64,000 nt of DNA from an uncultured Rhodospirillales bacterium (GTDB taxonomy: Bacteria > Pseudomonadota > Alphaproteobacteria > Rhodospirillales > UBA2165): NCBI GenBank assembly GCA_913055735.1, contig CAJXKD010000002.1, positions 984,150 through 1,048,149 on the forward strand, read 5' to 3'. Position numbers and translations under genes: made by a program. The notes below the pieces were generated by a model that did no database searches, had not been told where the DNA came from, and saw nothing but the letters and a program-made list of their open reading frames with translations. Shown here one piece after another: positions 2,447 through 22,205 of this stretch. Position 1 is the first letter of the stretch. Each line of letters opens with the position of its first letter.

Positions 2447-2974
2447 TCAACCCTCGAGATTTCGGCGATGCGTTATGCCAAGTTGCCGGTAATGCTCGAC
2501 TTGCGCGGGCCAGGTGGCGACCTCCTCGGGCCTCAAATCGCGCATTTTCTTCGCCGGGTTACCCGCCCACAATTCGCCTTTCTTGACCCGTTTTCCGGGC
2601 GCGACCAGCGCCCCGGCGGCAACCATTGCCCCTGATTCGACGACGGCGCCATCCAAGACGGTGGCGTGCATGCCGACGAAACAGTTGTCTTCCAAGGTAC
2701 AGGCGTGGATCAGAGCCATATGGCCGATGACGATATTGGCGCCGATATAGGTGTCGAACGCATTCTTGGTGATGTGGACGACGCTGCCGTCCTGGAGGTT
2801 CGTATTCTCGCCCACATAGATCGAGCCGTCATCGCCCCGCAAGACACAGCCGTACCAGATATTCGCCCCAGAGGCGATTTTGGTATTTCCGATCACGGTC
2901 GCGTTCGGCGCGATAAAGGCATCTTCGGCGATTTCGGGGTGAGTTCCCTCATAGGGTACGATTAGTCCGCTCAT
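2447..2974 (-). CDS. gamma-carbonic anhydrase family / hexapeptide-repeat protein (YrdA/PaaY-like)
   Basis: 175 aa. Left-handed beta-helix hexapeptide pattern (IAPNATVIGNTKIASGANIWYGCVLRGD...IYVGENTNLQDGSVVH...IGANIVIGHMALIHACTLED) typical of this family. Confidence 0.8.
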   Translation of the reverse strand: MSGLIVPYEGTHPEIAEDAFIAPNATVIGNTKIASGANIWYGCVLRGDDGSIYVGENTNLQDGSVVHITKNAFDTYIGANIVIGHMALIHACTLEDNCFVGMHATVLDGAVVESGAMVAAGALVAPGKRVKKGELWAGNPAKKMRDLRPEEVATWPAQVEHYRQLGITHRRNLEG

Positions 2975-3157
2975 GGCTCTTCCTTATTGGATTTCCTTGG
3001 CTTGCCGCCGGTTCTTCAGAACCTAGCCCATGAAAAGGTTAACGCCAAGCACCCCCGACAAGGGCCGCCAAGATTGACATTATGGCCCAATTCCCGTACT
3101 TCCGCGCCAACGCGCGATGCGGTCGCGCCTTATGAAATCGATCTGGAAGCCTAATAC

Positions 3158-4495
<1,338 letters not shown>

Positions 4496-7747: not shown

Positions 7748-8878
7748 CTAGAGATAGAATTCTTTCAGGGGCGGGAAACCGTTGAAGCCGACGGACGAAT
7801 AGGTCGTCGTATAGGCACCGGTATTGAGAATGTCGACCTGATCGCCGACCTTTAAACTCAACGGCAAGCGGTATCCGGATTTCTCATAAAGAATATCGGC
7901 GCCGTCACAGGTCGGTCCGGCGACGGCGACCGGTCCCGTCTCATCGCCATCCCGCAGCGTACGGATCGGGTATTTGATGGCCTCGTCCATGGTTTCGGCC
8001 AGGCCGCCGAACTTGCCGACATCCAAATAGACCCAGCGCACGTCATCGCCGTAATCCTTGCTGGAGATCAGCACCACCTCGGTCCGCAACAGACCGGCCG
8101 TGGCAGTCAGGTAGCGGCCCGGTTCGATCATCACCGTGGGAATGCGGTTTCCGAAGGAACGAACCAGCCCGTCCATGATGGTATCGGCCACCTCCTGGAT
8201 ATCCGGCACGTCATCGCGATAGCGAATGGGAAAACCGCCTCCCAGGTCGATCATGCCCAGTTCGATACCGGCCGCCCCAAGGGTGGTGAAAATCATCGCG
8301 GCATCGCCGATGGCGGCCTGCCATTGCAGCGGATCGGTTTGCTGGGAGCCGACATGGAACGACAGGCCATAAGGCACCAAACCTTTATCGCGAGCTTCGA
8401 TCATCAGATCGGCCGCCATACGGGCGGAACAGCCAAACTTGCGCGACAACGGCCACTGGGCGCCGCCGTTCTCCACCAGGATGCGGCAAAACACTTTCGC
8501 CCCCGGCGCGGCAACGGCGAGCTTCTCCAACTCGGTAGCGCTGTCGAAGGCAAACAAACGGACGCCCTGGGCAAAGGCGGTGGCGATATCGTCCTGCTTC
8601 TTGACGGTATTGCCGAAGGCGATTCGCTCCGGATCGACGCCCGACGCCAAGCACCGGTCGACCTCGGAAATACTCGCAACGTCGAAATTGGAGCCCAGGC
8701 CGGCCAGCCGGTCGAGCACCTGCGATGCCGGATTGGCTTTCACCGCGTAATAGATTTCGGCACGCGGCAGCGCATTCTTGAGGGCGTGGTAGTTGTCCTC
8801 GACCACGTCCAAATCGACGACCAGACACGGGGTCTGGGGTCGGTGCTCCGCGAGAAATTTTTCGATATGAGGCGTCAT
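7748..8878 (-). CDS. type III (alanine-racemase-fold) PLP-dependent ornithine/lysine decarboxylase
   Basis: PCLVVDLDVVEDNY...IYYAVKANP (PLP-Lys), SFHVGSQ, DLGGGFP and GPTCDGADIL match the eukaryote-type ODC/DapDC family. 376 aa. Confidence 0.85.
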   Translation of the reverse strand: MTPHIEKFLAEHRPQTPCLVVDLDVVEDNYHALKNALPRAEIYYAVKANPASQVLDRLAGLGSNFDVASISEVDRCLASGVDPERIAFGNTVKKQDDIATAFAQGVRLFAFDSATELEKLAVAAPGAKVFCRILVENGGAQWPLSRKFGCSARMAADLMIEARDKGLVPYGLSFHVGSQQTDPLQWQAAIGDAAMIFTTLGAAGIELGMIDLGGGFPIRYRDDVPDIQEVADTIMDGLVRSFGNRIPTVMIEPGRYLTATAGLLRTEVVLISSKDYGDDVRWVYLDVGKFGGLAETMDEAIKYPIRTLRDGDETGPVAVAGPTCDGADILYEKSGYRLPLSLKVGDQVDILNTGAYTTTYSSVGFNGFPPLKEFYL

Positions 8879-9098
8879 ACGAGCGGCCCTTCCAAGTGCG
8901 CCACCAAGGGTGCGCGGTTATACGGCATTCTCGGAGGAATAAAAGAGAAAAATGCCCCCACAAAAAACCCGACTATTTCGGTCGGTTATACTGGATTTCC
9001 CAGTGATAACGGCCTAAATTGGCACCACACTGACGCCCCGCAAGGGCCGCGAAATAATATCGTTAAACCGCAGAAAAGTGCCGAAAAAGGACGTCCTA

Positions 9099-9929
9099 AT
9101 GTTTATTCAGACCGAAGCCCTCCCCGATCCCAACCGGCTGAAATTCATCCCGGGTGAAGAGGTGCTACCGTCCGGAACCGCCGAATTCCCCGACGAGGAG
9201 TCGGCGGAACGCTCTCCCCTCGCCGCCCGCCTATTCGGCGTCGACGGCGTGACGGGCGTGACCCTAGCCACCGATCATTTGGTGGTCGCCAAGGAAGGGG
9301 GCGAAGATTGGATGGTCCTCAAACCCATGCTGCTGGGCGCGATCATGGATCACTTCATGTCGGGCGCGCCGGCGGTGCATGGCCTTACCCCCAGTGCCGC
9401 GCCTGTCGCGGATAATTCGGACGGCGATCCGGTGGTCGCGGAGATCAAAGACCTCATCGAGACGCGTATCCGGCCGGCCGCGCAACAGCATGGCGGCGAC
9501 GTCCATTTCCGCGCGTTCAAGGACGGCGACGTGCTGTGCGAGTTCGAAGGCAGCGCCTTTTCGCTCATCGGCGGTATGACCAACGTGTTGCGTCACTACG
9601 TGCCGGAAGTGGTGGCGGTGAAGGACTACCGTGACGCGCTGCCCAAACCGGGTCTCGAAACGCCGACGGCGGAAGCCATTCAGAAGCTGCTCGACGAACG
9701 CATCAACCCGGCCGTCGCCGGACATGGCGGCTACATCTCGCTGATCGACGTGCAGGACGACCGCGCCTACATCCGTCTCGAGGGCGGCTGCCAGGGCTGC
9801 GGCATGGCCGACGTGACGTTGAAACAAGGCGTCGAGGTGGAAATCAAATCGGCGGTACCGGAGATCTCGCAGGTGCTCGACGTCACCGATCACGCCGAAG
9901 GCACGAACCCCTACTACCGGCCCGCTTAA
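9099..9929 (+). CDS. NifU/Nfu-family Fe-S cluster protein (Nfu_N domain plus two NifU_C-like modules)
   Basis: MFIQTEALPDPNRLKFIPG is an Nfu_N start (AGGA 7 nt upstream of ATG 9099). The last module carries the CxxC site (IRLEGGCQGCGMADVTLK). The middle module (IRPAAQQHGGDVHFRAFKDGDVLCEFEGSAF) lacks it. Confidence 0.8.
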   Translation: MFIQTEALPDPNRLKFIPGEEVLPSGTAEFPDEESAERSPLAARLFGVDGVTGVTLATDHLVVAKEGGEDWMVLKPMLLGAIMDHFMSGAPAVHGLTPSAAPVADNSDGDPVVAEIKDLIETRIRPAAQQHGGDVHFRAFKDGDVLCEFEGSAFSLIGGMTNVLRHYVPEVVAVKDYRDALPKPGLETPTAEAIQKLLDERINPAVAGHGGYISLIDVQDDRAYIRLEGGCQGCGMADVTLKQGVEVEIKSAVPEISQVLDVTDHAEGTNPYYRPA

Positions 9930-10595
9930 TTACATTTTCGCCTTTTCGGCGCGGCCCGTATTGACGATGTGCCACATCATCTGGGCGGCGACACTGCGCC
10001 ACGGGCGATAGACCTCCCCCGCATCCCACAACTGTTTGCGGTTGGGCCGTTCGGGCAGGTTCTTGAGCTGCTGATAGCCCATCATGATGCCGAGATCGTC
10101 GGCGGGCCACAAATCGGGACGGCGCAGCGCGAACATCAAATAGATTTCCGCCGTCCAGCGCCCGACGCCCTTAAGGGTGACGAGTTTCTCGATGGCGGCT
10201 TCGTCCTCCATGCGCGCAACGCCGCGCAAGGAAACATGCCCGTCAACGATGGCTTCGGCGATGGCGCGGCCATAATTGCCCTTCTGTCGGCTGAGGCCGA
10301 TGGTGCGGTGATCGTCGTCGCTGAGCGACAGGAACACTTCCGGCGTCATGGGATCGGCAAAGGAATTAAGGCGCCCCTGGATGGCGCGCGCCGATGCGGT
10401 CGAGACTTGCTGCGCGACAATGATCTTGAGCAGCGAATCATATCCGGGCGGGCGCGAGCGCGGCTTCGGCACGCCGTAGACCTCGACGGCACGGGCGAAA
10501 TCGGGATCGAGAGCGGACAACGCGGCGATCCCCTCCGCCATGCCGGATTTGGTTATTTTAAGGACCATGCCGCACACGTTAGTATGTCGTAACAC
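9930..10595 (-). CDS. HhH-GPD superfamily DNA-3-methyladenine glycosylase II (AlkA-like)
   Basis: IIVAQQVSTASARAI...LKGVGRWTAEIYLMFAL...PDLWPADDLGI is the HhH-GPD motif with the catalytic Asp. The start is uncertain (several in-frame Met codons near the 5' end). Confidence 0.8.
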   Translation of the reverse strand: MLRHTNVCGMVLKITKSGMAEGIAALSALDPDFARAVEVYGVPKPRSRPPGYDSLLKIIVAQQVSTASARAIQGRLNSFADPMTPEVFLSLSDDDHRTIGLSRQKGNYGRAIAEAIVDGHVSLRGVARMEDEAAIEKLVTLKGVGRWTAEIYLMFALRRPDLWPADDLGIMMGYQQLKNLPERPNRKQLWDAGEVYRPWRSVAAQMMWHIVNTGRAEKAKM

Positions 10596-10615
10596 CAGAC
10601 GAAAGGGAGAACACC

Positions 10616-11407
10616 GTGATCGTCGAACAGATCTGGACTGATAACAAATTCCGAAACTTCAATTACCTCATCGTGTGCCCGGAAACCGGCCAGGCGATGG
10701 CGGTCGACCCCCTCGAGCACGAGCAATGCCTGCGCGTCGCCAAGGAAAACGGGTGGGAGATCACCGAGATTCTCAACACCCACCATCACCATGACCATAT
10801 CGGCGGCAATGCGCCCCTGGTCGAGGCGACCGGCGCCCGCATCCTCGCCCACGCCATGGCGCGTGACGAGATCCCCGACATGGATGTCGGCCTGTCGGCG
10901 GGCGACGTGATCACCATCGGCAAGACCGTGGAGATGGAAGTGCTCGATACGCCCGGCCATACCATGAGCCACGTCTGCCTGTTCGCGCGCACCGACCATC
11001 CGGCGCTGATCTGCGGCGACACCTTGTTCAATGCCGGTGCCGGCCATTGCAAGGGCGGCGGCCAACCGGAACCGCTCTACCAAACCTTCGCGACGCAACT
11101 TTCCAAGCTGCCCGACAATACCCGCATTTTCCCGGGTCACGACTACATCGAGAACAACCTCAACTTCACCCTCGACCGCGAGCCCGATAACGAACGTGCG
11201 GCCAAGCTCAAGGAAGAAGTGGCGGGCCAGGACACCAACGAGGCCTTCGTCACGACGCTGGGTTTGGAGAAAGAGGTGAACACGTTCTTCCGGCTGCACA
11301 ACCCGACGGTGATCGCGCGCCTCAAGGAAGCGTTCCCCGATCTGCCCGACGAACCGGACGAAAAGACGGTGTTCCTCAAACTGCGCGAACTGCGCAACGA
11401 CTGGTAA
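10616..11407 (+). CDS. gloB: hydroxyacylglutathione hydrolase (glyoxalase II)
   Basis: Metallo-beta-lactamase motif THHHHDHIGG, later TPGHT and FPGHDY. Length ~260 aa with a HAGH_C-like tail. Confidence 0.88.
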   Translation: MIVEQIWTDNKFRNFNYLIVCPETGQAMAVDPLEHEQCLRVAKENGWEITEILNTHHHHDHIGGNAPLVEATGARILAHAMARDEIPDMDVGLSAGDVITIGKTVEMEVLDTPGHTMSHVCLFARTDHPALICGDTLFNAGAGHCKGGGQPEPLYQTFATQLSKLPDNTRIFPGHDYIENNLNFTLDREPDNERAAKLKEEVAGQDTNEAFVTTLGLEKEVNTFFRLHNPTVIARLKEAFPDLPDEPDEKTVFLKLRELRNDW

Positions 11408-11416
11408 GGCGGGAAA

Positions 11417-12721
11417 TTATTCTGCCGGTTGAGCGGCGGCGCGGGCCCCAGCGCGTTTGTACACCCGTGCCGCCCACCCCGCCGCCACGGCGAAGCCCAG
11501 CGTCACCAGCATCAGGATGGCGGAGGCGAGGAAAATCCCTGCGGGTACGTCGTGATCCATGATGGTGCCGTTGAGTACCGGACCGATGAAGCCGCCGACA
11601 CTGAACCCCGTCGAGACGAACCCGAACGCCTTGCCCGTGGCGCCCGCGGGCGCGATGGACGAAACCATCAGATCGCGCGACGGCATCACCGCGCCAATCA
11701 TGAAGCCTGCAAAGGTCAGCCCCGCGACCACCCCGCCGAACGGCAGCAACGACGCGGCGATGGCGATCAGCGCCGCCGCAGACAACCCATAACCGATGGC
11801 GGCGAGCACGTCGAAGCGCTTGAGCCAGGTAGTGACCATGCCGCCCGCGAACACGCCGATGGTGATGCCCCACAGATAAGTGGCGATGGCCTGGTTGGCG
11901 GCCACCACGTCGATCTCGAACATCTGGATCAGCGCCGTGATGCCGAAGGTCTGAATGCCGTTGCCGGACAAAGCGGTGGCCACATAGAAACCGAACATCA
12001 GCAGGATCGGCGTCGAGAACACAAAGGAGGCCGCACCCGGTTTCTTGGCGTCCGCCTTCTCGGCTTTTGCCGCCGCGAGCGCGGGCGTTTCCACACCCTT
12101 TAGCAACTTGGCGAACACGATCAGCAACACAGCGCCGGCCAATCCGGCGAGGCCCAAAATATGGATAATACCGCGCCAGTCGAAATGCGGCGCCAGGAAC
12201 GCGACCACCGTCGGCGTTGCGGCGAAGCCGAGGAAACCGCCGGTGGTGTGGATGGCGTAAGCCTTGCCGCGCCAGCCTGGCCGCACCCGGTCGGTGAGGA
12301 TGGAATAGTCGGAGGGATGGAACTGGCTGTCGGCGAGCCCGGCGACGGCGGCGAGCACCACCAGCACCAGCACGGACTCCGCGAAGCCCATGAGGAACAC
12401 CGACGCCGACACGATGGCGAGGCCGCCGATGAGAAACGGCCGCGCGCCGATCTTGTCCATATAGACGCCCGCCGGATACTGCCCCGCCGCCGACATGCCG
12501 GCATAGGCGGTCATGATCAGGCCGAACAGGACGAAGGCGCTTTCGGCGCCGAGATCGGCGCGGATCAAGGGCAGCAGCGACGGCACGGTGAGGACGAAGA
12601 AATGGCTGAAGAAATGCGCCATGGTCACGAGACCGATGACGGTGAGTTCCTTCGACGTGCTGGAGGTTTCTGCGGCTACTGGGCTGGTCGGTCCGGGCAT
12701 ACGGACGGAATCCTTTTTCAT
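11417..12721 (-). CDS. MFS transporter
   Basis: 434 aa and highly hydrophobic, with about 12 predicted TM stretches and a central loop. MFS-like D-R/K loop (MDKIGARP). Confidence 0.8.
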   Translation of the reverse strand: MKKDSVRMPGPTSPVAAETSSTSKELTVIGLVTMAHFFSHFFVLTVPSLLPLIRADLGAESAFVLFGLIMTAYAGMSAAGQYPAGVYMDKIGARPFLIGGLAIVSASVFLMGFAESVLVLVVLAAVAGLADSQFHPSDYSILTDRVRPGWRGKAYAIHTTGGFLGFAATPTVVAFLAPHFDWRGIIHILGLAGLAGAVLLIVFAKLLKGVETPALAAAKAEKADAKKPGAASFVFSTPILLMFGFYVATALSGNGIQTFGITALIQMFEIDVVAANQAIATYLWGITIGVFAGGMVTTWLKRFDVLAAIGYGLSAAALIAIAASLLPFGGVVAGLTFAGFMIGAVMPSRDLMVSSIAPAGATGKAFGFVSTGFSVGGFIGPVLNGTIMDHDVPAGIFLASAILMLVTLGFAVAAGWAARVYKRAGARAAAQPAE

Positions 12722-12823
12722 TTCTTCTTATATGGGGCCTCTGCCCACTCTTCGATCCCTATGCCTCCAGGCCCGGTTTGGCAAGCACTTCACAATACCA
12801 GCGAGACAACCACCAGGACGAAA

Positions 12824-13762
12824 CTAGCTTGGTGGAACAATCTGGTTATCAGGTAGATTAATCTGTTCGATTGTCTCGTTTCCGAATTTGTTGCGAATTC
12901 TGCCCAGGAACTCAGGTTCGACTGCGCGGATAAAACTTAAGTAGCCGACGAGATACTTTATTTCCTCTGGAGTGGCATTCCCGGTTCGAAATCGATGTAT
13001 CAATCCACGAACATAACGTTTCTGCCCTCTTCCAATGGATATGCCACCTTCGTTTGTTAAAACCAGGCCTGTCACTCTCATTCGCTTTTTTTTCGAAGAG
13101 TGGTGTGTTTTTTGATCGTTGATTTGAAGGTGCGGGTAGTCGAGATTCTCGGCTACATGTCGAACATGGTTAATCAGGCCACCAAGTTGATCAGGTAGAT
13201 TCGACGAAAAAGTCAGATCATCTGCATATCGAGAGTATCGAATTCCGAGTTGATTACATCGTTCGTGAATCAGCGTGTCAAAGACATACATTATCGTATT
13301 GGACACAACCGGTGAACTTGGCGCTCCGATTACCAATGATCCACGCTTGCATACTGCAGCGCATACAAAGGGAATTTCGTCAGCACTAAGGAGATCCGGA
13401 AGAAGGTGTAAATTATTGTTCAGAAGGCTTCTGATATCTGCTGCCGTGATTGACCTAAAGAATTCGGTAAAATCCATCTTTAATAGAAAACGCTGCCCCT
13501 GGTGAACACGAGCATTGTGATAGATATTGATGTTACTTCTGTAGGCAAACGCTGCTTCGTGAACGGGAAGCCTTCCGAAAATTTCTCTGGCCATCCATCT
13601 TTGGACTACTTTCAGTCGTCTCGACGGGTGTTCAATTTGGCGAACCCCACCATCCCTTTTTTCTATCGGATAAGATTTATAACGATGATTGGCTGCAAGT
13701 ACGGTCGCAGCTACAAAACCTTGGCTGAGGCCCAAATCCGCAGAAATTTTCTCAATAATCAT
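12824..13762 (-). CDS. retron-type reverse transcriptase (RNA-directed DNA polymerase)
   Basis: 312 aa, RT domain only. RT1 GGVRQIEHPSRRLKVVQ. Retron-typical NAxxH (YHNARVHQG). RT3 LKMDFTEFFRSI. RT4 GAPSSPVVSN. RT5 YSRYADDLTFS. RT7 NDQKT...RVTGLVL (retron VTG). Thumb-like tail LVGYLSFIRAVEPEF. ATG 13762 overlaps the upstream stop (ATGA). Confidence 0.9.
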   Translation of the reverse strand: MIIEKISADLGLSQGFVAATVLAANHRYKSYPIEKRDGGVRQIEHPSRRLKVVQRWMAREIFGRLPVHEAAFAYRSNINIYHNARVHQGQRFLLKMDFTEFFRSITAADIRSLLNNNLHLLPDLLSADEIPFVCAAVCKRGSLVIGAPSSPVVSNTIMYVFDTLIHERCNQLGIRYSRYADDLTFSSNLPDQLGGLINHVRHVAENLDYPHLQINDQKTHHSSKKKRMRVTGLVLTNEGGISIGRGQKRYVRGLIHRFRTGNATPEEIKYLVGYLSFIRAVEPEFLGRIRNKFGNETIEQINLPDNQIVPPS

Positions 13763-14661
13763 GCGTTTTGTGCCCTCAACTCTAACAGATGTGACGCATC
13801 TCTCTGATAGACGCTTAAAATTTTGGCCTTAATTTCGTCAGTTGAGATTCCCTCTATCTCGGCCAATGTAAAGTCGCTCACATTCGCGAAGAAAAGAGGC
13901 TCGTCCTCGCCTCTAGTTATATATTTCGCTGAGGCCAATACAGATACAATATAACGCACTTCGCTATAATTTGATTTTCCAAAAATATTCTTGAACAGAA
14001 TAGAAAGCTCAACCGGGTGAAGAATGGGAAAAACTGAAAATAAATGAATTGCGATATAAAATTTCTGCTTTAACCCAGCATTCTCAATTTCGTCTCCTTC
14101 TATTCGATAGCTCTTTTTGTGTCCCGCACTTCCAAGTACACCCTTTATTGGCTCAAAATCTGGTTCATTGCCGTCACAAACAACATATACGGTCTGACCA
14201 AATTGAGATTTTTGGTTGATTTTGTGTATTGGACCAAGATTTAGAAATGAAGGATCTGCCTGATGACCAATTTGATTTGCAACTAATGTTTTCGCGGAAA
14301 GATCATCAAACGCGGAAAAATATCCTACTTCCGCAAACGAGCCTGCGCTTTCAGGAAAAATGAGAACAAAATCAGCGACATCGCAGATAAATCTCTCAAG
14401 ATCAGAGATATTGATGAAATTGTGATCGCCGTCGGCACGAATATCCGAAAATGAACTTTCGGCTAAAAATATTTTGTAATCCGGCAAGTTTTCAGCCGAG
14501 TACTGAAGAAACGCACTTCGGTGGTTTTTCTCGTTCGTGGGTCCTCCGCAAACAAACAGTAGTTTGTGATCTCTGCGTATAAGTAATCTGCCAGAACGAA
14601 AAATTTGGGCCACTTCCTGCACAAGTGCTTGCCCTTGAGGCAATTGGAGAAAGTGGCCCAC
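13759..14661 (-). CDS. putative retron effector: N-terminal Rossmann/NDT (nucleoside deoxyribosyltransferase)-SLOG-like domain plus C-terminal winged-helix-like domain
   Basis: 300 aa with a GTG start at 14661 (AAGGGG 9 nt upstream). LLFVCGGP...VLIFPESAGSFAEVGYF resembles the glycine-rich loop and catalytic-Glu strand of NDT/SLOG-type folds. Its position immediately upstream of the RT, with coupling to it, mirrors type II retrons (Sen2/St85 order). Confidence 0.6.
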   Translation of the reverse strand: MGHFLQLPQGQALVQEVAQIFRSGRLLIRRDHKLLFVCGGPTNEKNHRSAFLQYSAENLPDYKIFLAESSFSDIRADGDHNFINISDLERFICDVADFVLIFPESAGSFAEVGYFSAFDDLSAKTLVANQIGHQADPSFLNLGPIHKINQKSQFGQTVYVVCDGNEPDFEPIKGVLGSAGHKKSYRIEGDEIENAGLKQKFYIAIHLFSVFPILHPVELSILFKNIFGKSNYSEVRYIVSVLASAKYITRGEDEPLFFANVSDFTLAEIEGISTDEIKAKILSVYQRDASHLLELRAQNA

Positions 14662-14885
14662 TTCAAGAACCCCTTACCTAACGCGAGGCGATATCTAAAG
14701 TCGCCTTGCAGAACTGCGAGGCGACTTTAGATATCGCCCGCAGCATGACGTTCAATTCCAAACGGCTTGGCTATAGCACCAAGCGCAAGACACTCAACAA
14801 CCGTGAGGTGTCCAACTAAGAGGCAGGCTACAACGGTTACCTACTCAAAGGAAGCTGTCAAGACGGCGACCAAAACTTTAGCGAA
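14662..14885 (-). ncRNA. candidate retron non-coding RNA (msr-msd) region
   Basis: A 314-nt gap lies upstream of the effector on the coding strand. It contains a perfect 19-bp inverted repeat (14687-14705 / 14720-14738, extendable by about 3-4 pairs into the loop). It also has two short hairpins (14765-14784 gcttgg/ccaagc; 14789-14812 gacac(c)tca/tgagtgtc). A third partial copy of the arm (ctaaagt[tttgg]tcgcc) lies at about 14865-14881. The a1/a2 repeats and the branching G could not be fixed by eye. Confidence 0.4.
14687..14738. repeat. perfect 19-bp inverted repeat (ggcgatatctaaagtcgcc / ggcgactttagatatcgcc), 14-nt spacer
   Basis: Read directly from the sequence. The spacer ttgcagaactgcga is itself partly self-complementary. 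No U/T-run follows on either strand, so it is not a classical intrinsic terminator. Confidence 0.95.
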
Positions 14886-14975
14886 CACGAGATTTCATTA
14901 AACCGCGCATAGATTGGGTGCGTTCTTTAGCTTTCGATACCTCTGCCTTCGGGCCAGATTTGGCATCCCACTTGC

Positions 14976-15368
14976 TCACAGGGTAAAAATACCACCTATG
15001 AAAATAAATAGGCCCCCGATGATAAACAGGCCGAGCGACGTCCACATTAACGATACGCTGAAAAAACAAATCCTCGGTTCTTTTAGGTTGAATCCGAATA
15101 TTTTCCCGGCGGGAGGGCTATACCCGTGGCTTTCATACTCAAGAGAACATAAACGCCGGAACCGATTGTGAATGACTGCACAAACCAGCCCAAGCTGAAA
15201 TGCCAAAAGCGCCCACAAAATCGACCAAGAAAGTGGGGCAAACTCCGATTTGCCGATAACGGTGGGCAAAAGAGCGAGAAGGGCAACAGCGCCACCGCCG
15301 TTCAAAAGCACCAATCCTTTGACAACATCGCTGTCAATTTGTGCGCGTATTTCCAATCCTTTTGTCAT
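14976..15368 (-). CDS. small integral membrane protein (about 3 TM), function unknown, within the AT-rich island
   Basis: 130 aa with hydrophobic stretches (GLVLLNGGGAVALLALLPTVI; LSWSILWALLAFQLGLVCAVI; ICFFSVSLMWTSLGLFIIGGLFIFIGGIF). Strong SD GGAGGA 8 nt upstream of ATG 15368. Same strand as the RT operon. Confidence 0.6.
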   Translation of the reverse strand: MTKGLEIRAQIDSDVVKGLVLLNGGGAVALLALLPTVIGKSEFAPLSWSILWALLAFQLGLVCAVIHNRFRRLCSLEYESHGYSPPAGKIFGFNLKEPRICFFSVSLMWTSLGLFIIGGLFIFIGGIFTL

Positions 15369-15519
15369 TGAGCAAATCCTCCATCCGGAAATTGAAGCTA
15401 CAAGGCGCCCAATAGCAGAAAAGGACTAGCCCAGACGGGCTTGATCCCTGTTAAAGCTTTTATTCTAAGGTTTGGATAGTTTAAGTCAGTACGCGGGATG
15501 AGCGCAAAGGCACGAGATA

Positions 15520-15945
15520 ATGCCGCCGATTAAACAAAAAATGCACCTAATCTTCGTCGGTGCTATTGCGATCTGGTTGGGCGTAACATCGATCCAAACC
15601 GCAGTGGCAGACGAGACGTTGAGCCGCGACGCGCTGACGGCGCTGTTCGCCAACAAAAGCATCGTTTATCCGTATAAAGAGTCAGACGAAAACGCCGTCG
15701 TCTTCATGGACCGGTTCGGCGGCACGGAGACCTACGTGCCGTGCGAGTTTTCCCACGGCACATGGTGGGTGAGCGAGGATGCGCGCCTGTGCTGGCAGGA
15801 CAGCCAAGAAAACAATATGGGCGATCCGGCGCCGCAGTGTTTCACGCCGCAGATGTCGGGAAGCGACATCGAACTCACCGATGCAAGCGGCGCGCTCGCC
15901 GTTGCCGGCAAGCTCATCGAAGGCAGCCGCATTCCCACCGGCTGA
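15520..15945 (+). CDS. secreted hypothetical protein (signal peptide; possibly DUF995-like)
   Basis: N-terminal signal sequence MHLIFVGAIAIWLGVTSIQTAVA|DE. Four Cys in a G-T-W-W-V...LCW...QCF pattern. No catalytic motif recognised. Confidence 0.6.
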   Translation: MPPIKQKMHLIFVGAIAIWLGVTSIQTAVADETLSRDALTALFANKSIVYPYKESDENAVVFMDRFGGTETYVPCEFSHGTWWVSEDARLCWQDSQENNMGDPAPQCFTPQMSGSDIELTDASGALAVAGKLIEGSRIPTG

Positions 15946-15982
15946 CTGATCGAGTATCCCGATCCCGGCGCGTGACGCCGGG

Positions 15983-16462
15983 CTAGATCAACGCAAGAAG
16001 AAAACACACCAGCGCCGCTGCTGACGCCGCCGTGCGCACGTGGTTCCAGGCGGTCCAGCGGCGCAGATAGTCGGCCCACAATTCCTCGCCGGCGGCAGTG
16101 CCCACCTCGCTCGCCGCAAGGGCGTTGTTCATCGGTACATTGAAGATCACGGTTACCAGGAATCCCCCGACGATATAGAGGGTGCTACCCGCGAGCAGCC
16201 AGCCGCTGCCGGGCGCGCCCCAGGCGAACAAGCAATACACCGCGAGAACGGCACAGGCCGCGAGCGCGCCGAAAAAGATCACGAAGAAAAGAGGGTTCAG
16301 GATGGTGACGTTCATTGCCTTCATGGCAGTCATTCCCTCAGCCCGAGACAAACCACCGAGCGCCTGCATCACGCAACGGGAAAAGGCATAGAAAATTCCT
16401 GCCATTAACCCCGCGCCGAGGGCGGCAAGAACGATCACGATGGGAAGCCATTGTCCGCTCAT
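15983..16462 (-). CDS. DUF1772 (anthrone-oxygenase-like) membrane protein
   Basis: Four TM segments and the family-typical FNVPMNNALA...LWADYLRRWTAWNHVRT. Start set at ATG 16462 (MSGQW). Confidence 0.7.
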   Translation of the reverse strand: MSGQWLPIVIVLAALGAGLMAGIFYAFSRCVMQALGGLSRAEGMTAMKAMNVTILNPLFFVIFFGALAACAVLAVYCLFAWGAPGSGWLLAGSTLYIVGGFLVTVIFNVPMNNALAASEVGTAAGEELWADYLRRWTAWNHVRTAASAAALVCFLLALI

Positions 16463-16528
16463 GTGGCTATTTAATCCCAATCACCACAGACGGGCAAAGG
16501 CCTCTTGGAAGGCAAAATGTCGCGGAGA

Positions 16529-17680
16529 TCACCCCCACAACTCGTCGCTGGCGATCTTGGCGCCTTCGGAGAGGGATTCCAGCTTGGCCCACATGATAGC
16601 GGGGTCGACGCGCTGGATGCCTTCCACCTGGGCAAAGCCGCAATCGGTGCCGGCAATGACGTTCTCACGCCCCACCAACTTGGCAAAGCGAACGATGCGG
16701 TCGGCCACCAGGCGCGGGTGCTCGACAGTGATGGTGTGGTGCGTCACCACGCCGGGGATGAGGATCTTGCCCTCGGGTAGGCGGCCGTTTTCCCAAATGC
16801 GCCATTCGTGTTCGTGGCGGACGTTGGCGGATTCGATGGAATAGGCCCCGGCGCGCACCTCGAGGACAAAATCGATGATCTCTTCGAGCGGTGCATCCGA
16901 GGTATGGGGCACGTGCCAGCTGCCGAAACAGACGTGATAGCGCACCCGGTCCTCGGGGATGCCGTCGAGGGCATGGTTGAGCGCCTCGATGCGCAGGCCC
17001 GCCCATTCCTTGTAGCGTTCCGGGCTTTGGCGCACGAGGTGGTCGTACATATTGGCAAGCACCGCGTCGTCCACCTGCACCAGGAAGCCCGCTTCGTGGA
17101 TGATGCGGTATTCGTTCCGGAGCGCGTCGGCGATGGCATAGATGTAATCGTGCTCGTTCTTGTAATACTCGTCGAGCCCGTCATAGGCGGTGCTGGCGGG
17201 CGCAACGGCGGTGATAAATGCCTCTTCCACGTTCACGCCGTCGAGGGCGGCACGCAGATTGGCGGCATCACGTTTCAGGCTGCCATCATCCTGATAGGCG
17301 ATCGGGCCGATGCAGGCCTCGGTCGGACGCTCCAGGGCGTTGGGCATTTCCCGGGCGATGTGATCGTGGAACCGTTCGATCTCGTTCCCGAGCCAAACGA
17401 CGGGACGCTTCTGATCGGGGCGCAGTTCGAAGCCGGTCATGCGTTCGAGAACGTAGGCTGCCCAACTCGATTTCCCCCATTCGCCGTCATTGACGATGTC
17501 GATGCCGGCATCGGCCTGCATGGCGACAACCTCCTTCACGCTTTCGCTCAGGAGCGCTTCATAGGTCTGCTTATCGGCCGGGCTGCCGTCGCGCGCTTTC
17601 TTCGACGTATCCAGCAAAGCCTTCGGGCGGATCAGGCTGCCGACATGGGTGGTGAGGATTCGATTTTCGCTGCGTTTCAT
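16529..17680 (-). CDS. cobalamin-independent methionine synthase-like protein (MetE C-terminal/UROD-fold family)
   Basis: 383 aa single domain. N-terminus ILTTHVGSLIRP and later YHVCFGSWH...ESANVRHEHEW...AGTDCGF fit the COG0620-type Zn-dependent methyltransferase family. Confidence 0.7.
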   Translation of the reverse strand: MKRSENRILTTHVGSLIRPKALLDTSKKARDGSPADKQTYEALLSESVKEVVAMQADAGIDIVNDGEWGKSSWAAYVLERMTGFELRPDQKRPVVWLGNEIERFHDHIAREMPNALERPTEACIGPIAYQDDGSLKRDAANLRAALDGVNVEEAFITAVAPASTAYDGLDEYYKNEHDYIYAIADALRNEYRIIHEAGFLVQVDDAVLANMYDHLVRQSPERYKEWAGLRIEALNHALDGIPEDRVRYHVCFGSWHVPHTSDAPLEEIIDFVLEVRAGAYSIESANVRHEHEWRIWENGRLPEGKILIPGVVTHHTITVEHPRLVADRIVRFAKLVGRENVIAGTDCGFAQVEGIQRVDPAIMWAKLESLSEGAKIASDELWG

Positions 17681-17840
17681 GGGCCGTCCCTGCTTTTTAT
17701 ATGGCTTGAATTACGCATAGAGTTGCAGGCGCGGCGCGCCGTGGCAAGACACTGATGGCGGGCCAAGTGATGGGCCACTTGATTGGTCAAGTGGTAGGCC
17801 GGGCGCTAGGCGCGTGGGACGCCACCCTCCCCGGGCGTCA

Positions 17841-17916
17841 TGCGCGGGCTTGACCCGCGCATCCACCTTGGAAACGGCAGAGACCGCAAAGATGGATTAC
17901 CGGGTCAAGCCCGGTA
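17841..17916. repeat. pair of REP-like palindromes in mutually inverted orientation
   Basis: tgcgcgggcttgacccgcgca (17841-17861) and taccgggtcaagcccggta (17898-17916). The cores cgggcttgacccg and cgggtcaagcccg are exact reverse complements. Intergenic location. Confidence 0.8.
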
Positions 17917-18068
17917 ATGACGATGGGAACAGTGGGAAAATACGCTCAAAGCAGCTTGCGAAAGATTGGGGAATTTGTCCGGCAACCCACCTGACGATTC
18001 CCCTGGCTATCGCCGATTATCGATTGCGGTTAGATTGATCGGAGTGTCGTGCCGAAAGTGGGAGCCAC

Positions 18069-18428
18069 ATGCTCACTTATCTCACGCTGATCCTGTGCTG
18101 CCAATTGATCGGCGAGTTCTTCGTCACCTGGAGCGGCCTGCCCGTGCCCGGCCCGGTGTGCGGCATGGTGCTTTTGTTTGTGGGATTGTTGATCAAGGGC
18201 GGCATCCCCGACGATCTTTCCATGGTCGCCGATACGTTGTTGCGTCATTTGTCGTTGCTGTTCGTGCCGGCGGGTGTCGGCGTGCTGTTGCATGTGGGCC
18301 TGCTGGAAGAAGACTGGCTGCCCGTGTCGGCCGCGTTAATCGTCAGCACGCTCCTGACCATCGCCGTCACCGCCTTCGTCATGGCCTGGTTGAGCAGAAA
18401 CACCACGCCGCAAGAGAAACAGGGCTGA
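18069..18428 (+). CDS. CidA/LrgA-family holin-like membrane protein
   Basis: 119 aa with 4 TM. MLTYLTLILCCQLIGEFFVTWSGLPVPGPVCGMVLLF is the LrgA signature. Immediately followed by an LrgB gene. Confidence 0.85.
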   Translation: MLTYLTLILCCQLIGEFFVTWSGLPVPGPVCGMVLLFVGLLIKGGIPDDLSMVADTLLRHLSLLFVPAGVGVLLHVGLLEEDWLPVSAALIVSTLLTIAVTAFVMAWLSRNTTPQEKQG

Positions 18429-18432
18429 TGCC

Positions 18433-19149
18433 ATGACCGAGGTGCGCGACATCTGGGTCTATTTGAGCGCCAGCCCGCTGCTACATCTGACGCTCACCTT
18501 GCTCGCCTATCAGGCCGGCAATGTTCTGTATAAGAAGGCCAACCTCAACCCGTTGCTCAACCCGGTCCTCATCGCCATCGTCGTGCTGGTGATTGCGCTT
18601 TACTCAACGGACACAAGTTACGAGACCTATTTCGAAGGCGCCCAGTTCGTGCACTTCCTGCTCGGTCCGGCGACGGTGGCGCTGGCCATTCCGCTCTACC
18701 GCCAGTTCCATTATCTGCGCCGCTCCGCCGCCGCCATCCTCATCGCCATCGCCACCGGATCGCTGACCGCCGCGTTGTCGGCCTTGGCCATTGGCGCTTT
18801 GTTGGGCGGCTCGGACGCAACCCTCATCGCATTGGCGACCAAGTCCGTTACCACGCCCGTCGCCATGGGCATTGCCGAACAGTTGGGCGGCCTGCCGTCG
18901 CTGACGGCGGTGATGGTCATCCTCACCGGCATCCTCGGCGCGATGCTCGGCCCCCTGCTCCTCAATCTGTTGCGCATCAAAAACTGGGCGGCGCGCGGCT
19001 TGGCCATGGGCACGGCCAGCCACGGTATCGGCACCGCGCGCGCCTTGCAGGTCAACGAAACGGCGGGCGCTTTTTCCGGATTGGCGATGGGGTTGAACGC
19101 GCTGGCAACGGCAATCCTGATGCCGATCCTGTGGCGGCTGTTGTTTTAA
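18433..19149 (+). CDS. LrgB/CidB-family membrane protein
   Basis: 238 aa polytopic. KSVTTPVAMGIAEQLGG and GLAMGTASHGIGTARA are conserved LrgB motifs. 4-nt gap after the LrgA-like gene. Confidence 0.85.
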   Translation: MTEVRDIWVYLSASPLLHLTLTLLAYQAGNVLYKKANLNPLLNPVLIAIVVLVIALYSTDTSYETYFEGAQFVHFLLGPATVALAIPLYRQFHYLRRSAAAILIAIATGSLTAALSALAIGALLGGSDATLIALATKSVTTPVAMGIAEQLGGLPSLTAVMVILTGILGAMLGPLLLNLLRIKNWAARGLAMGTASHGIGTARALQVNETAGAFSGLAMGLNALATAILMPILWRLLF

Positions 19150-19159
19150 ACTTGGTGTT

Positions 19160-21160
19160 CTAGATTTTCGCAATCGCGTTCTTGAAGAAGTCTTCGAGCG
19201 CACGCACCGGTTTGAGATCATCGAATAGCACGTCGCGACGTTCGACGATGCGGCGTTCGAGATCGTTGCGGCGGTCGGTATCGGTCGCGAGCGCAACCGC
19301 GATCTCCGCGCACTGTTCCGGCGTTTCGCCGATCGCGTCCTCGATCTCCATCATCCGGTATTGGCCCAAGGTCACGCGCCCGCGCATGAATTCACCCGCA
19401 TGCGTGACCAGCGCCTTGCCCATCATGAAGGTTTCGTAGGACGTGTTGCCGCCCGAGAAATGCGGCGCATCGAGCACCACATCCACTGCCCCCAGCAGCG
19501 ACAGAAAATCCTCCGGTGCGACGCGCGGCAGGACGGTCACCCGCTCCGCCACATCGGGAATCGTCTCGCGCATCCGCGTCCGCACAAGTTCCGTCCAGTG
19601 CGGCACGGCGGCATCCAACAATAGAAACTCGGCCTTGGGGTCGTTGCGCAAGATGCCCGCGGCCATCACGTCGAGATCGGGATGATATTTGATGGTGGTC
19701 TGCGCACAGAGATAGAGGTTCTTGTCGGTGGGCAAGCCGAGATCGTCACGCGAGCATGGATCGGCCGGCACGTCGGGGCGCGGGTAGCACGTCGGCAGGC
19801 TCGGCAGCAGATGCAGCTGTTCGCTGTAGTGCATTTGCGTATCGCCGTCCTCGATCAATTCGCTTGAGAGAAAGTAGTCGACGTTGGGAATGCCGGTGGT
19901 GTCGGGATGCCCCCAGGTCACGCATTGCACGGGGGCGAGCCGGGCGAAGGCAAGAAAATAGGTGCGGATGTCCATGCCGAGATCGCCGTAGAACAAAACG
20001 TCCTGTTCGGCATCCAAAATGGCTTGGCGCGCCTCGGGGAATCCATCGGGAAAAATAATCACTTTGTCGGCGGCGGCGTTGATGGCCTGCGCTACCGGAT
20101 CGTTCGGCGCATGCGCATCTTGGGGAAAGGTGAACACGGTGACCTCGAACACGTCGCGATCGAATTGTTCGACAAAACCGCGCATGAGGCGGCCGACCGA
20201 ATGGCGGCGGAAATAAGCCGACACCAGCCCGAGCTTGATCTTACCGTTTGGGGCGCGGGGATTTTCGCAATGGGGGGCGACCGTCGCCAAGTCCGGGCAC
20301 GCCTTGAGATGCAGGGCCGCCACCTTTTCCTGCAATGTTTTGTCGTTGAGGGCATGATAGGCAAGAAAGAACGTCGTGGTCGAGGTTTCGAGCGCCGGGT
20401 CCTCGACCTTGAGCGGGCGGTCCATCAACTCATCGATCCGCGCCTCGAAATCCGCGCGGGTTTGGCAGATGTCATCCCAAGACCGCGTCACCACCGGCAG
20501 CGACAAGGCGCGTTTGATGGCGAGGCCGTCATGGGGATCACGCGCAAGCGCCGCACCGTATGCCGCGAGCGCCTCCTCCACCTCCCCCATCCGGCGGTAG
20601 GTATTGCCGAGATGGACATAGGCGCGCGCCGCCCCCAAATCGTCCCGGCTCGTCTCGGCGGCGCGTTTAAAGGTCTCGACCGCTTCATCATGACGACCGG
20701 TATCGGCAAGTATGTTGCCGAGATTGAGCATGGCATCGACCCGGTTCGGATCGGCGTCCAATGTGCGAATATAGGTAAGGATGGCCGCTTCGTCGTGGCC
20801 CAACTGCCGGTAAAGCTTGGCGAGATTGTAGAGGGGATCCGCGGACGCCGGATCGATTTCGATGGCCGCTTCGTAATGCTTCTGCGCGAGATCGAACCGG
20901 TTCAGGTTCTGATACATCACGCCGAGATTGTTGTGATAATCGGCGCGCCGTCCGTTGATCTCGACGGCCCGGCAAATCATATCGACGGCGTTTTCCGTTT
21001 GGCCGCTTTGGCCCAACAACACGCCAAGCATATGCAGCGCGTCGGCGTGACGTGGATCGGCGCGCAGGATTTGCTCGTAGAGATCGCGCGCCGCGTCCAG
21101 GCGGCCCGCCGTGTGATGTTTTTGGGCGTCGTTGTAGAGATCGGCGGCGGTGCTCGGCAC
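19160..21160 (-). CDS. TPR-repeat protein fused to an O-GlcNAc-transferase-like (GT41/SPINDLY-type) domain
   Basis: The N-terminal ~230 aa are TPR repeats (AxxxYxxAL...P..A.A...LG pattern repeated). The C-terminal ~400 aa show a GT41-like pattern (IGLVSAYFRRHSVG...VTWGHPDTTG...YLCAQTTIKYHPD). Confidence 0.75.
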   Translation of the reverse strand: MPSTAADLYNDAQKHHTAGRLDAARDLYEQILRADPRHADALHMLGVLLGQSGQTENAVDMICRAVEINGRRADYHNNLGVMYQNLNRFDLAQKHYEAAIEIDPASADPLYNLAKLYRQLGHDEAAILTYIRTLDADPNRVDAMLNLGNILADTGRHDEAVETFKRAAETSRDDLGAARAYVHLGNTYRRMGEVEEALAAYGAALARDPHDGLAIKRALSLPVVTRSWDDICQTRADFEARIDELMDRPLKVEDPALETSTTTFFLAYHALNDKTLQEKVAALHLKACPDLATVAPHCENPRAPNGKIKLGLVSAYFRRHSVGRLMRGFVEQFDRDVFEVTVFTFPQDAHAPNDPVAQAINAAADKVIIFPDGFPEARQAILDAEQDVLFYGDLGMDIRTYFLAFARLAPVQCVTWGHPDTTGIPNVDYFLSSELIEDGDTQMHYSEQLHLLPSLPTCYPRPDVPADPCSRDDLGLPTDKNLYLCAQTTIKYHPDLDVMAAGILRNDPKAEFLLLDAAVPHWTELVRTRMRETIPDVAERVTVLPRVAPEDFLSLLGAVDVVLDAPHFSGGNTSYETFMMGKALVTHAGEFMRGRVTLGQYRMMEIEDAIGETPEQCAEIAVALATDTDRRNDLERRIVERRDVLFDDLKPVRALEDFFKNAIAKI

Positions 21161-21212
21161 GTTTACCCCGTAACCCGTGGGTGCCGGCGGTCCCGCAATC
21201 TAGAACCCTTGG

Positions 21213-22205
21213 CTAGATGAGGCCCGCCAGCGGCGATGACGGATCAGCATACATCTTTTTCGGCATCCGTCCGGCAAGATACGCCAAGCGCCCGGCCTCG
21301 ATACCGAGCTTCATGGCGCGGGCCATCTTGACCGGATCGTGAGCTTCGGCAATTGCGGTATTCATCAACACACCGTCGCAGCCAAGCTCCATCGCTACCG
21401 CGGCATCCGACGCAGTGCCGACCCCGGCATCGACCAAAATCGGGACATTGGCCTGCTCGATAATGATGCGCAGGCCGACTGGATTCTGGACACCGAGGCC
21501 GGAGCCGATAGGCGCGGCAAGCGGCATGACCGCTGCGCAGCCGAGTTCCTCGAGCCGCTTGGCCATCACAGGATCGTCGCTGCAATAGACCATGACCTTG
21601 AAATCTTCCTTGATTAGCATCTCTGCGGCCTTGAGGGTTTCGGTCATGTGCGGATAGAGCGTAACGTGATCCCACAGCACCTCGAGCTTGACCAAATCCC
21701 AACCACCCGCTTCGCGCGCCAGACGCAAGGTGCGCACCGCCTCCTCGGCGGTATGGCAACCGGCCGTGTTCGGCAGGTAGGTGTATTTCTTGGGATCGAC
21801 GTAATCGACCAGCATCGGCTGATTGGGATCGGTGATATTGACCCGGCGGACCGCCACGGTGACGATCTCCGCCCCCGAAGCTTCGATGGCCTCCGCCGTT
21901 TCCTCGAAATCCTTGTATTTGCCAGTACCGACGAGCAGCCGCGATTTGTAGGTGCGCCCGGCAATCTCGAAAGTATCGTCAGCTGGGGGCGTGACACCCT
22001 CCGGCGCGCCACCGCCGATGAAATGGACGATCTCGAACTTGTCGCCGTCGCTCACGGAGATGTTGTCGTATTGCGACCTAGGGACGATCTCGAGATTACG
22101 CTCGACCGCCACTTTGCGCGCGTCCAGCCCGAGTTCTGCGATCAAGCCCTGAACGGTCAGAGGCGCCGCGACTTGGCGTGCCTCGCCGTTGATGGTCACA
22201 TTCAT
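21213..22205 (-). CDS. thiG: ThiS-ThiG fusion (sulfur-carrier protein fused to thiazole synthase)
   Basis: The first 66 aa, MNVTINGE...[10 protein letters not shown], are a complete ThiS ending in the activating GG. They continue in frame through a short linker into ThiG ([10 protein letters not shown]...LPNTAGC...KLEV...[10 protein letters not shown]...VDAGVGT). Start chosen at ATG 22205; the ORF extends to a GTG at 22232. Confidence 0.85.

Follow-up and report, generated by a model that had tools for sequence, protein, structure and literature searches.

A probable msr-msd gene of a St85/Sen2-type retron in an uncultured Rhodospirillales bacterium, with a terminator-like hairpin at the start of its effector gene

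Retron noncoding RNAs (ncRNAs) follow a common plan in which terminal inverted repeats surround the msr hairpin or hairpins and the msd hairpin (PMC7736814), and retrons of types I-A and II-A1 share one module of ncRNA and reverse transcriptase (RT) (Mestre et al., PMC7736814). In the type II-A1 retrons Sen2 and Vmi1 the order is msr-msd, an open reading frame (ORF) and the RT; the promoter lies 6 bp upstream, and the RNA has two stem-loops and carries its branching G at position 12 (PMC11701397). In Sen2, RcaT acts as the toxin and the RT together with the multicopy single-stranded DNA (msDNA) as the antitoxin, and phage functions are sensed (bioRxiv 10.1101/2020.06.22.160168,.160242). The effector of Retron-Eco1 (Ec86) is an N-glycosidase that hydrolyses NAD(P)+ within filaments of RT, msDNA and effector, the trigger being msDNA methylation (PMC12673091), and in the hybrid RNA of the type VI Retron-Vpa2 the ribosome-binding site and start codon of the effector lie within stems (bioRxiv 10.1101/2025.10.22.683967). 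Here we analysed a 64-kb window (the whole stretch of DNA, 64,000 nucleotides (nt) of contig CAJXKD010000002.1 from an uncultured Rhodospirillales bacterium), on whose minus strand an initial annotation had marked the interval 14662-14975 as a candidate msr-msd. We put at roughly 90% the probability that the msr-msd (ncRNA) gene of a St85/Sen2-family retron, type II-A1, lies in this interval, with the order promoter, ncRNA, effector and RT on the minus strand. Judged by its sequence, the element is a divergent but ordinary member of the known St85/Sen2-type retrons.

The reading is carried by comparison with homologous loci. Using an RT alignment, we fetched 80 genome loci, to which a few contigs of close homologues were added; a search of genome contigs with a single protein gave no relative, and its repeat with the alignment succeeded. 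These loci were scanned by script for a 5' arm (a2) ending in UA(C)-G that pairs with a 3' arm (a1) starting in UA, 90-300 nt downstream. Such a pair recurs in locus after locus, 900-1000 nt upstream of the RT and just before the effector, with arms of diverse sequence (GTCTCTTA / TAAGAGAC, AATATGCTCTTA / TAAGAGCATATT, CATTTCCTA / TAGGAAATG, TGCTATATTCTA / TAGAATATAGCA and GGACTCTTTA / TAAAGAGTCC, for example). In a 22-sequence alignment, the a2/a1 helix and msr stem-loop 2 taken jointly were paired in 87% of cells, compared with 38-49% when the partner was slid, and both sides had changed in 82 cells compared with 29 in shuffles (0/500 shuffles as high). The a2/a1 helix alone was 86% paired, the stem of stem-loop 2 covaries over the 22 loci (UA:10 CG:9 GC:3 at one of its pairs) and both helices were predicted independently by RNAalifold. 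When unique homologues were folded without constraints, 47 of 50 kept the closing helix, and throughout the folds two msr hairpins are followed by a long 3' hairpin (median 22 bp) that is unrelated in sequence from one locus to another. The layout of two short stem-loops and then one long stem, which had been read as msr followed by msd, is thus borne out by about 50 homologous loci. Comparison shows an RNA that is predicted to fold with its ends paired (a2/a1) around two msr stem-loops and the msd hairpin.

A covariance model (R1) was built from 17 of these loci, leaving out the window and its nearest relative (locus L081). Searched against both strands of the 64 kb, R1 gave a single match, full length, at 14826-14667 on the minus strand (36.8 bits, E = 4.6e-5), and in an E. 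coli record it also matched 783-957, just ahead of an effector and RT that NCBI annotates as St85-family. A metagenome scan with the RNA motif only (part of a2, the G that follows it and stem-loop 2) returned 37 loci. The effector lies directly after a1 in 32/33 of those with at least 600 nt of downstream sequence, and the RT is present in 22/22 whose contig extends through the effector. Conservation of the hairpin without an RT had been named in the initial annotation as a possible refutation; where the contig is long enough to tell, the motif was not found apart from retron genes, with one exception. This is L096 (metagenome contig WBZP01161926.1), the sole motif match with at least 600 nt downstream in which both the a1 partner and an effector match are missing, perhaps because the match arose by chance or the element is broken.

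The ncRNA, its candidate promoter and the genes that follow comprise these features:

14861-14856, minus strand: candidate -35 box TTGACA, suggested by its place at the start of the similarity to L081
14839-14834, minus strand: candidate -10 box TAACCG, proposed from position and conservation only, a weak match
14824-14817, minus strand: a2, 5' arm of the closing helix, GCCUCUUA, pairing with 14676-14669; 22 loci in register
14816, minus strand: candidate branching (priming) G, directly 3' of a2
14812-14789, minus strand: msr stem-loop 1, gacac(c)tca/tgagtgtc, in the minimum-free-energy fold
14784-14765, minus strand: msr stem-loop 2, GCUUGG/CCAAGC, with the family-conserved loop GGUG-NNN(N)-AGCC
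14756-14751, minus strand: conserved AUUGAA linker between msr and msd, AUUG being nearly invariant in alignment A3
14750-14678, minus strand: predicted msDNA template, ~73 nt, bounded by analogy with Ec86
14742-14682, minus strand: long msd hairpin, ~27 bp, with a 19-bp perfect core (arms 14738-14720 and 14705-14687)
14676-14669, minus strand: a1, 3' arm of the closing helix, UAAGGGGU, from homologue comparison, covariation and RNAalifold
14661-13759, minus strand: effector (toxin) gene, 300 aa, GTG start, by NCBIfam and PADLOC
14660-14599, minus strand: terminator-like hairpin in effector codons 1-19, arms 14660-14645 and 14621-14606, then AA-UUUUU (14603-14599)
13762-12824, minus strand: retron reverse transcriptase, 312 aa, by NCBIfam, PADLOC and Pfam

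The nearest locus, L081, has an RT 59% and an effector 67% identical to those of the window. The two loci are unrelated upstream of ~14862 and similar from cTTGACA onward. A 46-nt block that takes in stem-loop 2 and the linker (14789-14744) is 100% identical in L081, which exceeds the conservation of the proteins; in msr stem-loop 1, for which relatives have a hairpin at the same position, the base of the stem is identical and the tip differs. The msd arms differ at 8 positions, and these make 4 compensatory pairs (T-A to A-T, A-T to G-C, A-T to T-A and G-C to A-T) and 0 disrupted pairs. A search of homologous RT loci for compensatory changes, proposed at the outset, therefore found them in a2/a1, in stem-loop 2 and in the msd stem. 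The individual structures on which the initial annotation was built were all recovered, namely the hairpin gacac(c)tca/tgagtgtc, the hairpin gcttgg/ccaagc and the 19-bp inverted repeat, whose arms are perfect and flank a 14-nt loop; a repeat finder extends this repeat to 25-nt arms that are 96% complementary. Folding, likewise proposed there, placed the 314-nt interval below all 100 shuffles in energy (z = -3.9). The ncRNA gene itself is narrower than the interval 14975-14662 and spans about 14827-14669.

Across the aligned loci a G follows the invariant UA (UAC in one subclade) at the end of a2, and its counterpart in the window is G14816, which we propose as the candidate branching G with a predicted 2'-5' branch. 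Another closing helix, CUUUGAG...AACC (14850-14834) with GGUUCUUGAAG (14672-14662), was the first to be considered and was rejected, as no relative supports it and ...CUUA-G/UAAG... is in register instead. The ends of the msDNA template were set by analogy with Ec86, the start at the base 5' of the invariant G that precedes a1 and the stop after AUUGAA, and are approximate to plus or minus a few nt. By this analogy the template in the window would run over 14750-14678 and give an msDNA of ~73 nt, corresponding to the plus strand from 14678 to 14750 (5'-CTAACGCGAGGCGATATC...GCAGCATGACG-3'), with a 5' end, 5'-CTAACGCG..., templated from 14678. The AUUGAA linker is, by the same analogy, likely to be the region where reverse transcription stops.

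The protein-coding genes place the locus in the same family, whose RTs belong to RT clade 1. With NCBIfam NF038233 (retron_St85_RT, 'retron St85 family RNA-directed DNA polymerase'; cut-off 235) the RT scores 319 bits, and it also matches PADLOC RT_II-A as its best model (8.6e-108, with RT_I-A second) and Pfam RVT_1 (6e-21). Its translation shows NARVH (NAxxH), the catalytic YADD and RVTG, the last containing the VTG signature of motif 7 described for retron RTs (PMC8632793). In a 35-sequence alignment (A1), A84, H87, Y179, D181, D182 and G232 are invariant and A180 is nearly so, and the source of the homologous RT P0081 gives it the name 'retron St85 family RNA-directed DNA polymerase'. The effector scores 143 bits with NCBIfam NF038232 ('retron St85 family effector protein'; cut-off 100) and also matches PADLOC NDT_II-A (2e-40), and its homologue in L081 carries PF28093 STM3845. 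The stop codon of the effector overlaps the ATG of the RT by 4 nt (ATGA). Synonymous differences against L081 back the GTG start of the effector, so that the longer reading from 14661 is supported by sequence comparison, and the long hairpin indeed ends 25 nt before this start, as first reported. The same effector gene appears in two JGI metagenome records with different lengths, 287 aa in L124 (2141-3004) and 300 aa in L125 (2102-3004). A true ncRNA downstream of the RT had been raised as another possible refutation; the gap between the RT stop and the next gene's start, only ~100 nt, is too small to hold one.

An NDT-like effector of the STM3845/RcaT family therefore stands between ncRNA and RT, which is the gene order of type II-A1. 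Among RTs in the PDB, that of the window matches Ec78 (E = 1.7e-56) and Ec83 (E = 3.7e-49) better than Ec86 (E = 1e-31). The type II-A1 class fits because the RT is nearer to Ec78/Ec83 than to Ec86 and because types I-A and II-A1 have their ncRNA-RT module in common. Sen2 (St85, Salmonella Typhimurium) and Vmi1 (Vm85), both type II-A1, have the same order as the window, msr-msd, an effector of ~300-320 aa and then the RT (PMC11701397), and resemble it in a promoter just upstream of a2, a G ~10-16 nt into the RNA, two msr stem-loops and a long msd hairpin; for Sen2 the ncRNA was compared by its published description. By analogy the same mechanism would be expected, with a RcaT-type toxin held by an RT-msDNA antitoxin (bioRxiv 10.1101/2020.06.22.160168). 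The relationship is a distant one, with enterobacterial and Vibrio St85-family RTs (plasmid records) 36-38% identical to that of the window. St85 msDNA, at 85 nt, is longer than the ~73 nt predicted here, and the host in this case is an uncultured high-G+C bacterium.

Retron-Eco1 (Ec86), of type II-A3 and with a solved structure, shares the end motif (a2 ...CCUUA-G, a1 G-UAAGG...) and the RNA plan of two msr hairpins with AUUGAA before the msd. The N-terminal domain of its effector, which carries a St85-family name at NCBI, is homologous to that of the window effector in a PDB comparison (E = 4e-14). The Ec86 ncRNA sequence that we used matches 48 E. coli genomes at 100% identity; its msDNA template presumably runs from the base 5' of the G before a1 back to the base after AUUGAA. 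In the Ec86 locus of E. coli C (L126, NZ_CP029371, 1591-3639) the order is effector (1591-2514), ncRNA (2501-2670) and RT (2752-3639), with the ncRNA beginning before the effector gene ends, whereas in the window the ncRNA comes first, then effector and RT. Type II-A3 has a clade-9 RT, and the Ec86 RT is also far more distant (1e-31 against 1e-56 for the clade-1 RT of Ec78). We considered and rejected membership of type II-A3, as gene order, RT distance and the outcome of the R1 search on the Ec86 locus are all contrary to it. Retron-Eco7 (Ec78) and Ec83, of type I-A, have RTs that are among the closest with a solved structure. Instead of an NDT-like protein they use a PtuA-like ATPase and an HNH nuclease as effectors, and genes of these two kinds are absent from the window locus. 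Gene order is variable within this RT family. In the distant loci L023, L024, L033, L042, L045, L060 and L069 only 20-90 nt, without an intervening gene, lie between an a2/a1-type pair and the RT downstream of it.

The position of the promoter was also informed by the relatives. The initial annotation had proposed TTTAAT (14902-14897) and TAAAGT (14880-14875), separated by 16 nt; both strings are there, yet the promoter scan does not report the pair and it falls outside the conserved block, which starts at ~14862. TTGACA/TAACCG appears from the sequence to be the better candidate. In the window TTGACA is followed by 16 nt, TAACCG, 9 nt and a2, and in L081 by 17 nt, the identical hexamer TAACCG, 6 nt and a2. 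The latter is the family pattern, since relatives have TTGAC(A/G/T), ~17 nt, a -10 hexamer, 5-6 nt and a2, and a consensus scan flags promoters at the family position in L127 and L014. TAGGTA (14843-14838) was tried as the -10 box and set aside, its spacer to TTGACA being only 12-13 nt and TAACCG fitting the family spacing. Transcription would then start near 14827, which would put the candidate G ~10-12 nt into the RNA.

Upstream of this promoter lies the string ctaaagt[tttgg]tcgcc (14881-14865, minus strand), a third partial copy of the repeat arm. It was suggested originally that this copy can pair with the long hairpin's distal arm, either as an a1/a2-like closing helix or as an alternative fold, the latter considered here as a regulatory one. 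The string is indeed present, with 12 bases able to pair with ggcgactttag. Its position is, however, upstream of the conserved block and also of the candidate promoter, and in L081 the hairpin arm has no upstream copy; as an alternative fold, too, the pairing is not conserved. The best local alignment score of the copy, 8, was reached by 19.5% of dinucleotide shuffles and 9.8% of equal-sized window pieces, which is the level of chance, and the minimum-free-energy fold of the whole interval leaves the copy unused. Were the hairpin arm to serve as a1, no msd template would be left, and the true a2/a1 is located elsewhere, with covariation. We therefore regard a role for the upstream copy in either form as scarcely credible. 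Further partial copies of the msd arm occur at 14925-14936 and 13866-13877 (CTTTAGCTTTCG at 83%, ATGTAAAGTCGC at 92%); the local-alignment test puts the one at 14925-14936 at the level of chance.

Several observations weigh against a functional St85/Sen2-type ncRNA at this position. The consensus promoter scan of the window did not report TAACCG, a poor -10 box, and the spacing from this hexamer to a2 is 9 nt, compared with 5-6 nt in relatives. At 8 bp, two of them G-U pairs, the closing helix a2/a1 is short. Rfam gave no retron or otherwise credible family over 11000-16500 at E up to 10, its best match being a spurious miRNA on the hairpin (E = 2). The covariance-model check proposed in the initial annotation was therefore answered in two ways, Rfam being empty and the model made from relatives having its single match at the element. 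R1 did not match the characterised ncRNA in the Ec86 locus; because of this, the link to a mapped branching G rests on the shared end motif and a four-sequence alignment. Finally, the sequence is known from metagenomes only.

Some of these points would also suit a decaying or silent retron, with genes and ncRNA that can be recognised and are unexpressed or non-functional in a high-G+C host with a weak -10 box. The failure of the consensus scan to find a promoter at TAACCG is in keeping with this, as is the setting of the retron, a 2.8-kb island (~12750-15500) of 39-50% G+C in surroundings of ~62%, which implies recent transfer. Against decay, neither ORF is broken or shortened and their stop and start codons overlap, the catalytic and family-invariant residues are all present, the pairs of the ncRNA are intact and an identical locus was recovered in two independent metagenome samples; that the -10 hexamer is common to L081 suggests selection. 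On this evidence we consider a dead element improbable, and retain the reading of an intact St85/Sen2-type retron. The island is bordered by an MFS transporter gene and by genes of ~62% G+C. Neither flanking direct repeats nor a tRNA gene was found in 8000-22000, and no integrase was found near the island. A hydrophobic ORF of 130 aa (15368-14976, minus strand), for which no family matched, lies in the island as well. In one relative, on the contig of P0010 (L086 4682-6348), a second RVT_1 gene and a faint phage-integrase-like gene come after the retron and a DDE transposase comes before it, surroundings that suggest a mobile defence island.

If the locus works like established retrons, the RT would bind the msr stem-loops, prime on the 2'-OH of G14816 and copy the msd from ~14678 to ~14750 into a hairpin-forming msDNA of ~73 nt, branched to the msr RNA. 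The RT-msDNA complex would keep the NDT-like, RcaT-type toxin inactive, and phage proteins that modify, degrade or sequester the msDNA would release the toxin and so bring about abortive infection. The tripartite toxin-antitoxin and anti-phage activity of the window retron are thus proposed by analogy. Most transcripts are likely to be short, untranslatable ncRNA, with the toxin and the translationally coupled RT coming from read-through only.

This last step is suggested by the 3' edge of the ncRNA. The core of a1, AAGGGG (14675-14670), serves at the same time as Shine-Dalgarno sequence for the effector, whose GTG comes 8 nt later. Since a1 and the Shine-Dalgarno sequence coincide, the a2/a1 helix would hide the ribosome-binding site of the toxin. 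In 39 related loci a1, as UAAGRGG, likewise forms the effector Shine-Dalgarno sequence at the same position, and the distance from the start of a1 to the first start codon of the long effector ORF has a median of 15 nt. The long msd hairpin is not followed by a U-run, as the initial annotation had correctly observed. A terminator-like hairpin (14660-14606, about -30 kcal/mol, z = -3.8) instead takes in U14660 and G14659 of the start codon and codons 2-19, leaving G14661 unpaired. Its helix is paired in 73% of cells over 34 aligned loci, compared with 35-48% when slid, and shows 59 double-change cells compared with 25 in shuffles. These counts were made on the named structure in place of RNAalifold, which predicted zero pairs for the alignment of effector starts (A6), where the helix is missing or shifted in about a quarter of the sequences and so escapes it. 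In 49 loci, the best hairpin within 100 nt after a1 has a median energy of -25.6 kcal/mol, compared with -10.5 in controls from deeper in the ORF (p = 4e-9), and at least 5 U occur in the 8 nt after it in 20/49 loci compared with 0/48 controls. In another subclade a canonical terminator is found, between a1 and the effector start in L127 and inside the early ORF in L014 and L003. The post-a1 hairpins of relatives, seen also in L003 and L008, lie at:

L127 958-989: hairpin after a1
L014 2110-2140: hairpin after a1
L085 2096-2160: hairpin after a1

Judging from these sequences, the effector-start hairpin is probably a partial terminator or attenuator that ends the short ncRNA transcript, with a predicted main 3' end near 14599, and throttles toxin and RT, and it probably also occludes translation. 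The resemblance to the type VI Retron-Vpa2, in which the ribosome-binding site and start of the effector also lie inside stems, suggests repression of the toxin at the RNA level. The type VI system differs in having a small-protein toxin, a helix-turn-helix (HTH) partner and no msDNA until triggered, whereas the window has a 300-aa NDT-like effector in a canonical msDNA-producing family; its hairpin is moreover terminator-like, unlike the type VI description (bioRxiv 10.1101/2025.10.22.683967). Looking, by eye only, for complementarity of the predicted msDNA to the effector-start hairpin, as in a type VI-like riboregulator, we saw none. The searchable literature yielded no paper that combines retrons with an intrinsic terminator, and in it the related idea of an effector repressed within a structured retron RNA was reported for type VI retrons only; as far as that literature shows the post-a1 hairpin of St85-family retrons is undescribed.

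Sequestration of the Shine-Dalgarno sequence and a terminator-like hairpin at the 3' edge are also what would be seen if the structured region were only a cis-regulatory leader (operator, insulator or attenuator) of the effector-RT operon and no msDNA were made. A pure operator, however, would conserve sequence rather than pairing, and here the long hairpin drifts in sequence and keeps its pairing. Further, a2/a1 covaries, the G after a2 is invariant, the msr loops are conserved and an intact retron RT (YADD, NAxxH, VTG) adjoins. A leader that makes no msDNA is for these reasons very improbable, while some cis-regulation in addition to the role as template is likely. A wider proposal, which we put forward tentatively and at somewhat less than even odds, is that the plan of St85-family retrons is a promoter, the ncRNA and an intrinsic terminator or attenuator; in this subclade the hairpin in the first 19 codons of the toxin would bury its start, a1 would serve as the Shine-Dalgarno sequence and the ncRNA fold would also act as the cis-regulator of the operon.

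As a probable member of the St85/Sen2 family, the locus gives an uncultured high-G+C bacterium a well-delimited retron (candidate promoter, a2, candidate priming G, msr, msd, a1, effector and RT), and the placing of a2/a1 and of the candidate G by comparison gives a basis for annotating the locus or for its reuse as a DNA-producing tool. If the wider proposal is true, short untranslatable transcripts would be abundant, and synthesis of toxin and RT would depend on read-through and on the opening of both the a2/a1 helix and the hairpin. This would be the counterpart, in a canonical retron, of the translational repression in type VI retron hybrid RNAs, and the post-a1 hairpin suggests how toxin-antitoxin retrons could keep their template RNA in large excess over the toxin.

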